From a virus (taxonomy: Duplodnaviria > Heunggongvirae > Uroviricota > Caudoviricetes), in the IMG/VR virus record IMGVR_UViG_2713896775_000009: a DNA stretch of 5,495 nucleotides. One strand, written 5' to 3'. Below the pieces are notes generated by a model that ran no database searches, was not told the DNA's origin, and saw only the letters and a list, made by a program, of their open reading frames with translations. The first letter of the stretch is position 1. Every line of letters starts with the position of its first letter. The position numbers were made by a program, and so were the translations under genes. Positions 188-4,637 of this stretch are shown here, in pieces.

Positions 188-664
188 TTATTCAAGCAGG
201 CTACGCAACATCCAGGCAGTTTTCTCATGTAACTGGATACGTTGTGTAAGCAGATCTGCTGTGGCTTCATCATTCGCATTATTAACGAGCGGGAACAGGG
301 AGCGTGCAGTTTTAACCACGGTCTCCTGGCCCTGGACAAGATTTTCAATCATGTTTTTTGCTGCCGGAATATCCTTATCTTCATTAACCGCTGTTAAACG
401 TGAAAATTCATGATATGTGCCGGGCGCGAAGCATCCGAGCGAGCGTATACGTTCAGCGATATCATCAACGGCAGTGGCCAGCTCATTGTATTGATTTTCA
501 AACATTAAATGTAAGCTGTTAAACATGGGGCCAGTTACATTCCAGTGATAGTAATGTGTTTTTATATACAGGGTATAGGTGTCAGCAAGAAGCCGGGACA
601 GGCCGTCTGCAATCTCCACCCGGGATGATTCAGCAATACCAATATCAATGATTTGTTTACTCAT
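188..664 (-). CDS. Dps-family (ferritin-like, DNA protection during starvation) protein, 158 aa; host gene
   Basis: ORF with ATG start and TAA stop, GAGG about 7 nt upstream. The translation aligns by eye to E. coli Dps across the four-helix core (HW motif, conserved His/Asp/Glu ferroxidase-type residues, DDxTADxLT near the C-terminus) but is clearly not the K-12 dps ortholog. Confidence 0.85.
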
Positions 665-799: not shown

Positions 800-830
800 A
801 GGTCACTATCAGTCAAAATAAAATCATTAT
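800..830. promoter_or_regulatory. Int arm-type binding sites P'1-P'3
   Basis: Three tandem 10-mers, aggtcactat (800-809), cagtcaaaat (810-819) and aaatcattat (821-830), as in the lambda P' arm. P'3 overlaps the int stop codon. Confidence 0.7.
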
Positions 831-1897
831 TTGATTTCAATTTTGTCCCACTCCCTGCCTCTGTCATCACGATACTGTGATGCCATGGTGTCCGACTTAT
901 GCCCGAGAAGATGTTGAGCAAACTTATCGCTTATCTGCTTCTCATAGAGTCTTGCAGACAAACTGCGCAACTCGTGAAAGGTAGGCGGATCCCCTTCGAA
1001 GGAAAGACCTGATGCTTTTCGTGCGCGCATAAAATACCTTGATACTGTGCCGGATGAAAGCGGTTCGCGACGAGTAGATGCAATTATGGTTTCTCCGCCA
1101 AGAATCTCTTTGCATTTATCAAGTGTTTCCTTCATTGATATTCCGAGAGCATCAACATGCAATACTGTTGGGATGGCAATTTTTACGCCTGTTTTGCTTT
1201 GCTCGACATAAAGATATCCATCTACGATATCAGACCACTTCATTTCGCATAAATCACCAACTCGTTGCCCGGTAACAACAGCCAGTTCCATTGCAAGTCT
1301 GAGCCAACATGGTGATGATTCTGCTGCTTGATAAATTTTCAGGTATTCGTCAGCCGTAAGTCTTGATCTCCTTACCTCTGATTTTGCTGCGCGAGTGGCA
1401 GCGACAGGGTTTGTTGTTATATGGCCTTCAGCTATTGCCTCTCGGAATGCATCGCTCAGTGTTGATCTGATTAACTTGGCTGACGCCGCCTTGCCCTCGT
1501 CTATGTATCCATTGAGCATTGCCGCAATTTCTTTTGTGGTGATGTCTTCAAGTGGAGCATCAGGCAGACCCCTCCTTATTGCTTTAATTTTGCTCATGTA
1601 ATTTATGAGTGTCTTCTGCTTGATTCCTCTGCTGGCCAGGATTTTTTCGTAGCGATCAAGCCATGAATGTAACGTAACGGAATTATCACTGTTGATTCTC
1701 GCTGTCAGAGGCTTGTGTTTGTGTCCTGAAAATAACTCAATGTTGGCCTGTATAGCTTCAGTGATTGCGATTCGCCTGTCTCTGCCTAATCCAAACTCTT
1801 TACCCGTCCTTGGGTCCCTGTAGCAGTAATATCCATTGTTTCTTATATAAAGGTTAGGGGGTAAATCCCGGCGCTCATGACTTCGCCTTCTTCCCAT
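827..1897 (-). CDS. int: Lambda-type tyrosine integrase Int, 356 aa
   Basis: Translation MGRRRSHERRDLPPNLYIRNNGYYCYRDPRTGKEFGLGRDRR...WDKIEIK is near-identical to phage lambda Int as I recall it, with the same length and the catalytic Tyr in the C-terminal ...ASQYRDD... segment. Confidence 0.97.
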   Translation of the reverse strand: MGRRRSHERRDLPPNLYIRNNGYYCYRDPRTGKEFGLGRDRRIAITEAIQANIELFSGHKHKPLTARINSDNSVTLHSWLDRYEKILASRGIKQKTLINYMSKIKAIRRGLPDAPLEDITTKEIAAMLNGYIDEGKAASAKLIRSTLSDAFREAIAEGHITTNPVAATRAAKSEVRRSRLTADEYLKIYQAAESSPCWLRLAMELAVVTGQRVGDLCEMKWSDIVDGYLYVEQSKTGVKIAIPTVLHVDALGISMKETLDKCKEILGGETIIASTRREPLSSGTVSRYFMRARKASGLSFEGDPPTFHELRSLSARLYEKQISDKFAQHLLGHKSDTMASQYRDDRGREWDKIEIK

Positions 1898-2093
1898 TTC
1901 TGATCCTCTTCAAAAGGCTACCTGTTACTGGTCGATTTAAGTCAACCTTTACCGCTGATTCGTGGAACAGATACTCTCTTCCATCCTTAACCGGAGGAGG
2001 GAATATCCTGCACTCGCGTACCCATCGACGAACTGTTTCAAGGCTTCTTGGGCGTCGCTGGCGTGCGTTCCACTCCTGAAGTGTCAAGTACAT
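1875..2093 (-). CDS. xis: Excisionase Xis, 72 aa
   Basis: Translation MYLTLQEWNARQRRPRSLETVRRWVRECRIFPPPVKDGREYLFHESAVKVDLNRPVTGSLLKRIRNGKKAKS matches lambda Xis as I recall it; 23-nt overlap with int, as in lambda. Confidence 0.95.
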   Translation of the reverse strand: MYLTLQEWNARQRRPRSLETVRRWVRECRIFPPPVKDGREYLFHESAVKVDLNRPVTGSLLKRIRNGKKAKS

Positions 2094-2840: not shown

Positions 2841-3179
2841 TTATATCATTAATTTTGTTTCGTGCCAGCCTTTGGTCACCCAGCATTGTGAGTCACCATT
2901 ACACGGGCATGAATTAACAGGAACTCTCTCGCCGCACTTACCGCACCGTTTTCTGCTGATCGATTTTATACGCCAGCGCACACGTGCATCATCCTGGCGG
3001 CTCAGTAACGCGATGTACTCACCAAACTCGCAAGGCGCACGCCTGAAGCGACGCGTGGCACAGTTACGCTCCAGCATTTCAATTTCCTGAGCATCAAGTA
3101 CAAGCTCCAGCTTACGCATACCGGATGATGCTTGCTTGGCTCTCTGATCGGCTTTGTGCTCTGTTGCTGATTTAGCCAT
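2841..3179 (-). CDS. Hypothetical Cys-cluster (zinc-ribbon-like) protein, 112 aa (cargo gene B), function unknown
   Basis: ORF with ATG start, AGGA about 9 nt upstream, TAA stop. The C-terminus carries CGKCGERVPVNSCPCNGDSQC (C-x2-C...C-x-C...C). It is not lambda Ea8.5, whose sequence I recall as different. Confidence 0.65.
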   Translation of the reverse strand: MAKSATEHKADQRAKQASSGMRKLELVLDAQEIEMLERNCATRRFRRAPCEFGEYIALLSRQDDARVRWRIKSISRKRCGKCGERVPVNSCPCNGDSQCWVTKGWHETKLMI

Positions 3180-3372
3180 TCTGCTTTTCCTGCATCAGGA
3201 GAAAGACAATCATGGCGGCGCGGATACTTCCGGTATCTTTATACGCGATATTCCCCTTCAATGGCACATACAAGAAGAGAGCCATCAACAGGAGTGATTG
3301 AGGAATCGACAACCAGCAACGCTTAATTATCTATAGTGTCGTATTTGCTTCATAAAATATGGCGAATAACAC

Positions 3373-3404
3373 AAAGCCCGCAGCAGCTCATTGTGCGGGC
3401 TTTT
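3373..3404. terminator. Putative bidirectional intrinsic terminator downstream of cargo gene C
   Basis: Hairpin aaagcccgca / tgcgggcttt (7-bp GC-rich core 3376-3382 / 3394-3400, extendable by A:U pairs, 11-nt loop), flanked by an A-run on one side and a T-run on the other. It sits ~70 nt past the stop of gene C. Confidence 0.45.
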
Positions 3405-3472
3405 CTTATACCTACTTCCTAGAGATAATTCTATGGAGGCATTAAATCAATACTGTCATTGGTAATATCATA

Positions 3473-4087
3473 TTATCTAAAAGTCTTTCCACTTTTAACA
3501 TCTAGGTATATTCTGTTCGACAACGTCATTCCTCCGCAATATGTGAAATAGATGTTTTCACCCTTATTGCTTGATGCCATCCACCCTCCGATTTCCTTAA
3601 AATCGCTTTCCGTGCAGACCCCTTCATTTATTAACTTCCTAGCTGCCGAAGAAAACTCTTTTTTGTATATACGGTAGTCATCAGATCCTTTGATTAAAGT
3701 ATCATCTCCGCTCGCATTTTCAGCAGGATCTGATGGCCTTTCACTGCTAAGATCACTAAATTTAACCCATTCTGAAAACTTGCCATTAACGATTCCATTT
3801 TTTCTTGTGCAGGATTTATTACCTTCTTTAATATATTCGCTTTCCCCTCCAACACATGAGGCTGAATATGGCTCAGTTATACGAACCCATTCACCTTTTT
3901 TTTCTAGAAAATCTACGCCTTCCCTGAAAAATAGTTTCCCAGCCACTCCACATTTACTTGAAGGGCAGGTATGTCTTTCCGTTCGATCAACAACAACCCA
4001 TAGTTTTGATTCATTTTTTGCCATTGCCGATGGTATTTGAGATGAGACAATTAACGTAAGCCCTAAAATTAGTATTGATTTTTTCAT
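3473..4087 (-). CDS. Secreted/periplasmic protein with N-terminal signal peptide, 204 aa (cargo gene C), function unknown
   Basis: ORF with ATG start and AAAGGAA SD, TAA stop. N-terminus MKKSILILGLTLIVSSQIPSAMA-KNE is a classic Sec signal (basic n-region, hydrophobic core, AxA cleavage motif). Six Cys in the mature part. Visibly AT-rich. Confidence 0.75.
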   Translation of the reverse strand: MKKSILILGLTLIVSSQIPSAMAKNESKLWVVVDRTERHTCPSSKCGVAGKLFFREGVDFLEKKGEWVRITEPYSASCVGGESEYIKEGNKSCTRKNGIVNGKFSEWVKFSDLSSERPSDPAENASGDDTLIKGSDDYRIYKKEFSSAARKLINEGVCTESDFKEIGGWMASSNKGENIYFTYCGGMTLSNRIYLDVKSGKTFR

Positions 4088-4385
4088 TGTAATTTCCTTT
4101 TACTTTTTACAAAGCGTTTAATCATGGCTGATTATCTCTAAGTGTAGTAACAGCCTTGTGCGAAACATGTTACCAAATCGCCATTTCAGTGTATCCGCAG
4201 TTAGGCTGCCACTTCAAGGATTCCTAATTACATGGTACGTAAGCGTAAAATCCCGTTGGTTGGCGGGTAATAACTCTGATCAAATCTCCCTTGTCTTTTG
4301 CTCTTACGTATGCAGCTCTTGTGTATTCAACCCAGGCCTCCAGTTCAGCAATACGCTTACTTCCATCCGAGATAACACCTTCTAC

Positions 4386-4637
4386 TCACGCTGCTCGTTG
4401 AGTTTTGATTTTTGCTGTCTCCAGCTCAACACGCAGTTTCCCCACCGTTAGCGCAATATCCTCGTTCTCCTGGTCGCGGCGTTTGATGTATTGCTGGTTT
4501 CTTTCCCGTTCATCCAGCAGTGTCAGCACAATCGATGGTGTTACCAGCTCATGGAAAAGGTCCGCGTCAAATCCCCAGTTGTCAGGCATTGCCTGCTCTG
4601 CCGCTTCACGCAGTGCCTGAGAGTGAATTACGCTCAC
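4386..4637 (-). CDS. ea22: Ea22-like protein, N-terminal 83 codons ending at an in-frame TGA (truncated or chimeric)
   Basis: GTG start overlapping the orf73 stop (GTGA), with AGAGAGG SD. Translation MSVIHSQALREAAEQAMPDNWGFDADLFHELVTPSIVLTLLDERERNQQYIKRRDQENEDIALTVGKLRVELETAK... matches the lambda Ea22 N-terminus as I recall it. The same frame continues open past the TGA to 4227. Confidence 0.75.
   Translation of the reverse strand: MSVIHSQALREAAEQAMPDNWGFDADLFHELVTPSIVLTLLDERERNQQYIKRRDQENEDIALTVGKLRVELETAKIKTQRAA

Follow-up and report, generated by a model that had tools for sequence, protein, structure and literature searches.

SH3b domains (Pfam SH3_3) dock endolysins, lysostaphin and NlpC/P60 hydrolases onto peptidoglycan, and they can also bind other ligands. 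Phage T4 Spackle and the lysozyme inhibitors Ivy, MliC/PliC and PliG are small exported periplasmic proteins, and MliC/PliC exist as soluble proteins and as lipoproteins. Two SOS-induced exported proteins, Bacillus subtilis YneA and Mycobacterium ChiZ, carry a LysM wall-binding domain. Finally, the phage morons described by Hendrix and colleagues, such as lambda bor and lom, are single accessory genes of atypical composition that are followed by a terminator, occupy different positions in different elements and are near-absent from related phages.

The gene described here lies in a 5,495-nt stretch of Caudoviricetes DNA (IMG/VR record IMGVR_UViG_2713896775_000009), hereafter the window, and its product shares features with each of these systems. 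It has an SH3b fold, but differs from the wall hydrolases in that it lacks a catalytic domain and has four conserved cysteines and an insertion of ~25 residues, its ligand binding being putative. It resembles Spackle, Ivy, MliC/PliC and PliG in being a small exported periplasmic protein and, as with MliC/PliC, its C-terminal domain family includes soluble and lipoprotein forms; in contrast, no sequence or fold similarity links it to these proteins, to which it can be compared as a functional analogue with a putative inhibitory role. With YneA and ChiZ it shares export, a domain of the wall-binding type and, in two of its relatives, a place in LexA-controlled operons, but the domain is SH3b instead of LysM and the copy analysed here has no LexA box.

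A previous, sequence-only reading of this DNA had called a gene at 3473-4087, and the open reading frame found on the minus strand has exactly these coordinates and encodes 204 aa. The gene and its expression signals are the following:

3473..4087, minus strand: target open reading frame, 204 aa, ATG start; identical to WP_000748281.1 and assigned to phrog_8310
4095..4099, minus strand: Shine-Dalgarno sequence AAGGA, 7 nt before the ATG; kept in the P1-like copy
4088..4229, minus strand: 142-bp upstream region that moves together with the open reading frame; blastn boundary at 4229
4188..4217, minus strand: candidate weak sigma-70 promoter TTGAAG-18-TACACT, 8 of 12 matches, read from the alignment

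The good Shine-Dalgarno sequence mentioned in that reading was thus located, and the AT-richness that it had ascribed to the gene was borne out by a GC content of 0.379 (GC3 0.30), against 0.44 for the window. The identical protein, WP_000748281.1 ('hypothetical protein'), is encoded in 133 of the 5,426 complete E. coli genomes, on chromosomes and on large plasmids, and a gene 99.5-100% identical to it is also found on large Klebsiella, Enterobacter and Citrobacter plasmids. Its 90% cluster contains 406 members, every listed one of them unnamed, and the protein matches the model of phrog_8310 (function unknown) over its full length. Of 81 homologues, those of Pseudomonas and Aeromonas were 60-69% identical, and a more distant group at 43-57% identity consisted of metagenomic proteins, most of them unnamed. 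Literature searches returned no paper on the protein, and every database name was 'hypothetical protein'. Comparison with an 89%-identical Escherichia fergusonii allele gave a dN/dS of 0.077, which indicates that the gene is under strong purifying selection. The open reading frame at 3473..4087 is a real, clearly functional accessory gene, and the protein that it encodes is uncharacterised.

The protein is organized in three parts:

4019..4087, minus strand: signal peptide, residues 1-23, MKK / SILILGLTLIV / SSQIPSAMA, predicted cut after AMA; assigned by inspection
3752..4009, minus strand: SH3b domain, residues ~27-112, with four conserved cysteines (41, 46, 78 and 93) and an insertion at about residues 74-100
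3476..3706, minus strand: C-terminal alpha/beta domain (C-domain), residues ~128-204, with the motifs SDD, GGW and YFTYCGG and with Cys158 and Cys184

By inspection, the N-terminus has the layout of a signal for Sec export and signal peptidase I: an MKK n-region, a hydrophobic core at residues 4-14 (11 residues, Kyte-Doolittle values up to 2.8), Pro19, and A-M-A at positions -3 to -1 before K24. Residues 1-23 are disordered, with low pLDDT, in the AlphaFold model, and the homologues retain a hydrophobic N-terminal segment despite low sequence conservation, some of them having a lipobox instead. The target itself does not look like a lipoprotein, since its first cysteine is residue 41 and its match to Pfam LPAM_1 is sub-threshold. 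All six cysteines (41, 46, 78, 93, 158 and 184) lie past the predicted cleavage site and each is conserved in at least 90% of 41 aligned homologues. The Sec signal cut after AMA and the six cysteines of the mature part, both of which had been proposed from the sequence, therefore hold. Because a Sec-type signal peptide would deliver the protein to the periplasm, these features identify it as a predicted exported periplasmic protein, and the six conserved cysteines would fit disulfide formation in that compartment.

Structure prediction and profile searches had been suggested as checks of the sequence-only reading, with homology to a known structural phage protein as the outcome that would speak against it. 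An AlphaFold2 model built on 41 homologues was confident (mean pLDDT 90) and resolved two domains, only the signal peptide being disordered. The first domain adopts the SH3b beta-barrel fold. Its Pfam SH3_3 score is 15.9 bits, below the gathering cut-off of 27 bits, and among the direct homologues several have PF08239 as a precomputed annotation. The second domain, of ~80 aa, consists of two helices followed by three strands with one cysteine pair, and was modelled at pLDDT 92 when taken alone. For this C-domain neither a viral-structure match nor a Pfam or NCBIfam family was found; searches of Pfam, NCBIfam and PADLOC gave nothing significant for the whole protein or for the C-domain, and PDB sequence searches with the protein and with the C-domain profile returned no genuine relative. 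No homology to a structural phage protein came to light. The PDB search did list sTIM11 and its relatives, de novo designed TIM barrels, at E ~1e-9. No single stretch of these matches passes, and we take them to be summed chance matches to the repeated 'SDDWRIL...' segment, which cannot be homologous. As far as these searches reach, the C-domain appears to match nothing described.

A profile of the C-domain found 528 representative clusters. In nearly all of the ~145 retrieved sequences inspected, the domain was placed at or near the C-terminus, and in most of them the preceding element was an SH3b domain, a lipobox, a signal peptide or a membrane anchor, the anchor often being combined with a zinc ribbon on the cytoplasmic side; about one fifth were fragments or had no clear N-terminal signal. 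When 60 C-domain proteins were scanned, 31 had an SH3_3 match at E <= 1e-3 and none had a detectable enzyme domain, while ankyrin repeats accompanied the C-domain in one protein and IalB (invasion-associated locus B) in one other. We infer from this architecture that the C-domain is the working module, to which interchangeable envelope-targeting modules are attached. A separate scan of genome contigs extended the family to free-living Alphaproteobacteria, Vibrio and Acidobacteria, and to Shewanella and others.

We then compared the DNA around the gene with that around the 89%-identical allele, on an E. fergusonii P1-like element (L147). Homology extended over window positions 3471..4229 at 84.6% identity, that is, from 142 bp 5' of the start codon to the stop codon. 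These limits indicate that the mobile unit is the upstream region plus the open reading frame, which from the alignment behaves as a self-contained accessory cassette in lambdoid and P1-like elements. Between the two copies the 142-bp upstream region is 80.6% identical over 144 columns, whereas synonymous sites differ at 47.5% (pS 0.475), which implies that the upstream region is under constraint. Blocks of 21 and 13 nt inside it (4088-4229, minus strand) are perfectly conserved, which points to a putative regulatory element. Rfam and tRNA scans of the whole window were empty, and the 142-bp region accordingly has no Rfam match. A promoter scan found no sigma-70 site on the strand of the target gene. 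TTGAAG-18-TACACT, whose hexamers are conserved and whose spacer is variable in the lambdoid versus P1-like alignment, scores below the threshold of that scan and would be, at best, a weak candidate promoter. An upstream open reading frame of 13 codons (MIKRFVKSKRKLQ; 4085-4126, minus strand) stops at a TGA that shares nucleotides with the start codon of the target (ATGA). It has only 8 codons in the P1-like copy, where it is shortened by a 1-nt insertion, so that this short frame is probably not conserved.

Homologues occupy a wide range of positions. In an Aeromonas prophage the gene lies between the Q antiterminator and holin genes; in Pseudomonas it directly follows the integrase gene of a small island (L004, L008-L012); and other copies are found in the cargo regions of conjugative plasmids or ICEs and, in at least one case, in an apparently ordinary chromosomal setting. 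A Citrobacter braakii ColE1-type plasmid of only 5,310 bp (L148, NZ_CP115736.1) carries a 64%-identical homologue as one of its four annotated genes. Its other three genes encode a 'TraD' protein and two unknowns that look membrane-associated or coiled-coil, and the Pseudomonas islands contain conserved unannotated genes (~208-236, 105, 130 and 337 aa) with no Pfam and essentially no PHROG matches; PHROG scans of the companion genes in these islands and in the small Citrobacter plasmid gave nothing informative. Close to the cassette in the P1-like element, genes for a Tad2-like (anti-Thoeris) protein and a dUTPase (L147 5763-6440) mark an accessory or counter-defence neighbourhood. Gammaproteobacterial copies are typically 2-10 GC points lower than their surroundings. 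Neighbour clustering across 66 loci revealed no conserved partner gene beyond within-genus synteny in Vibrio, and the target therefore appears to act alone.

Two features lie on the 3' side of the gene:

3365..3404, no strand: bidirectional terminator-like hairpin, stem 3376-3382/3394-3400, with an A-tract and a T-tract on its flanks
3212..3322, minus strand: HumD/UmuD'-like remnant, 37 aa, found by tblastn with 73% identity to residues 46-82 of the HumD-like protein of the P1-like element

The GC-rich hairpin lies 72 nt past the target stop codon, and the 66-nt stretch that contains it folds at -22.9 kcal/mol (z = -2.8). A consensus scan scores it as a terminator on the opposite (+) strand only, and on the target's own strand the U-tract is interrupted (UUUGUGUUAUU); these two observations argue for a hairpin of the bidirectional type that could plausibly, though more weakly, end transcription of the target gene. 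In addition, the hairpin falls outside the segment common to the P1-like copy, which is followed by a different bidirectional terminator. Thus the gene does have the 3' hairpin that had been described as its own terminator, but this hairpin is bidirectional and is not carried with the cassette. The proposal that the gene is a moron is largely supported: it is an accessory gene of low GC content, found at varied positions and present in only one of 50,697 phage records, although for a promoter of its own there is just the weak candidate. It departs from the classical morons in that its terminator lies outside the cassette and in that it is also found on plasmids, islands and chromosomes, and hence is not phage-specific.

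The prophage setting assumed in the sequence-only reading was confirmed by the neighbouring genes. On the same strand and from low to high coordinates, the target is preceded by int and xis (827..2093), a small open reading frame, a DUF2513 protein and a phrog_536 'regulator', and is followed by an ea22-like remnant, a DksA/TraR zinc-finger protein, a small hypothetical open reading frame (phrog_303) and DUF1382. The isolated phage Chlobot carries the same gene, in a block that runs on to exo, bet, gam, kil, ral and N. The target therefore sits in the leftward early transcription unit of a lambdoid prophage, between exo and xis. In lambda, this region is transcribed after induction from pL with N antitermination, which reads through intrinsic terminators. 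By analogy, the early-left position would make expression on induction no less likely than expression from the lysogen. Shortly upstream of the cassette lies the Ead/Ea22-like gene (4338-4637, minus strand), truncated and frameshifted, and the HumD remnant, annotated as a partial 'DNA repair protein' or 'UmuD-like protein', lies directly downstream of the hairpin, which places the cassette at a mosaic junction. The phrog_536 'transcriptional regulator' (2841-3179, minus strand, 112 aa) is Cys-rich near its C-terminus (CGKCG...CPC...C) and has a weak, sub-threshold NCBIfam match to the LexA-regulated protein PRK11675. At the other end of the window, a gene of the Dps family (ferritin-like; 188-664, minus strand) adjoins int. 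The Dps-int...trkG block is a decayed prophage bounded by IS26 or other IS, and E. coli carries it on chromosomes as well as on a large plasmid (L002, L003). This distribution, together with the target genes on Klebsiella, Enterobacter and Citrobacter plasmids, suggests that the prophage remnant was mobilised onto plasmids.

The humD remnant is one of several associations between this family and umuDC genes. In the P1-like element the cassette lies 158 bp after an intact humD, with no terminator between the two (L147 3647-4846), and humD is preceded by a perfect LexA box of the form CTGT-N8-ACAG (CTGTATATAAACACAG). In another case (L144 4019-6411) umuD and umuC flank the relative, from which they are separated by gaps of 45 and 10 bp, and a perfect GTTC-N7-GTTC box, which is a LexA box of the alphaproteobacterial type, precedes this arrangement. 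umuDC genes or their remnants were also present within ~2 kb of three further relatives. In contrast, no LexA box was found at window positions 3100-4400, so that this copy cannot be counted in the LexA regulon, and LexA boxes were not enriched upstream of family members in general. The umuDC link may reflect shared cargo sites on mobile elements and not a shared function, and we treat the umuDC/LexA association as a lead.

Taking all these data into account, the explanation that we put forward, tentatively and as a possibility, is that the protein is a wall guard that binds peptidoglycan and blocks or sequesters muralytic activity. The SH3b domain would tether the protein to the cell wall and the C-domain would do the work, in a role like that of phage T4 Spackle or the Ivy/MliC/PliC lysozyme inhibitors, without homology to them. 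The C-domain would probably have as its ligand an envelope component of universal occurrence, or an enzyme that acts on such a component, and not a strain-specific phage receptor, because identities of 60-69% are maintained between Escherichia, Pseudomonas and Aeromonas, whose phage receptors are unlikely to be shared. In the prophage, synthesis of the protein from the leftward early transcript would follow induction, a low level possibly coming from its own weak promoter. The export signal, the conserved cysteines, the pairing of the C-domain with targeting modules and the purifying selection are in favour of this role, as are the cassette boundaries, the varied mobile-element contexts, the early-left position in phage Chlobot, the lack of a conserved operon partner and the presence of a homologue among the four annotated genes of a 5.3-kb plasmid. 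On the other side, the 60 best fold matches did not include a known lysozyme inhibitor, the 66 loci did not encode a cognate hydrolase or effector nearby, no PADLOC defence model matched at E <= 0.1, and the SH3_3 score of the target is sub-threshold.

Classical superinfection exclusion, in which a protein made by the lysogen would block adsorption or injection of related phages by masking their receptor or injection route, would also suit a periplasmic phage-borne cassette with a candidate promoter and a following terminator, and relatives do lie in accessory regions beside defence or counter-defence genes (AbiJ, DarT, Tad2-like). We consider it unlikely, however, since the scan found no promoter on the strand of the gene, which belongs to an early-left block expressed on induction; the family is conserved in hosts with presumably different phage receptors and extends to apparently non-mobile chromosomal settings; and similarity to PADLOC models is lacking. 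The associations with umuDC bring in a modulator that would act on wall growth or division from the periplasm and be coupled to DNA damage or prophage induction, that is, a Gram-negative analogue of Bacillus YneA. The relative between umuD and umuC behind its alpha-type box, the 89%-identical allele after the LexA-boxed humD, the umuDC genes or remnants beside further relatives, the humD remnant in the window and the presence of kil in the early-left block of Chlobot all speak for such a modulator; yet the window gene has no LexA box near it, the family shows no general enrichment, many of its members occur in SOS-unrelated contexts and the umuDC link may come from shared cargo sites, all of which makes this role improbable. 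That the gene is a hitch-hiker with no current benefit to phage or host could be argued from the many E. coli and plasmid copies that lie in a decayed prophage remnant among gene fragments and IS elements. With a dN/dS of 0.077, an upstream region more conserved than synonymous sites, and six cysteines and motifs conserved over wide phylogenetic distances, this is very improbable. Least probable of all is a role outside the periplasm, as a secreted factor in host interaction or virulence. The protein is exported and rich in cysteines, and one C-domain protein also has an IalB domain, but the target carries an ordinary Sec signal, its gene is not linked to any secretion system and nothing connects the target with pathotypes. 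Moreover, the spread of the family among free-living marine and soil bacteria, including Alphaproteobacteria, Vibrio and Acidobacteria, argues against both host virulence and a strain-specific receptor role. Of what the sequence-only reading had suggested about function, then, expression from the lysogen, exclusion and virulence are not favoured by the genomic context.

As it stands, the target is a well-characterised hypothetical protein and not a discovery. A broader proposition, which we regard as doubtful, slightly less so than the YneA-like modulator, is that the C-domain is a new and widespread envelope domain, a stand-alone periplasmic protector or modulator of the wall used by mobile elements and wired to the SOS response in some lineages, through umuDC or phage early operons. 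If this were true, Gram-negative bacteria would react to DNA damage or to prophage induction with a periplasmic response directed at the wall, and the relatives inside LexA-controlled umuDC operons hint at such a coupling of the DNA-damage response to the cell wall. If the protein does guard the wall as proposed, it would represent a new class of small periplasmic factor that is traded by phages, plasmids and islands across Gammaproteobacteria and that is based on a domain family, with more than 500 clusters, described in no database.
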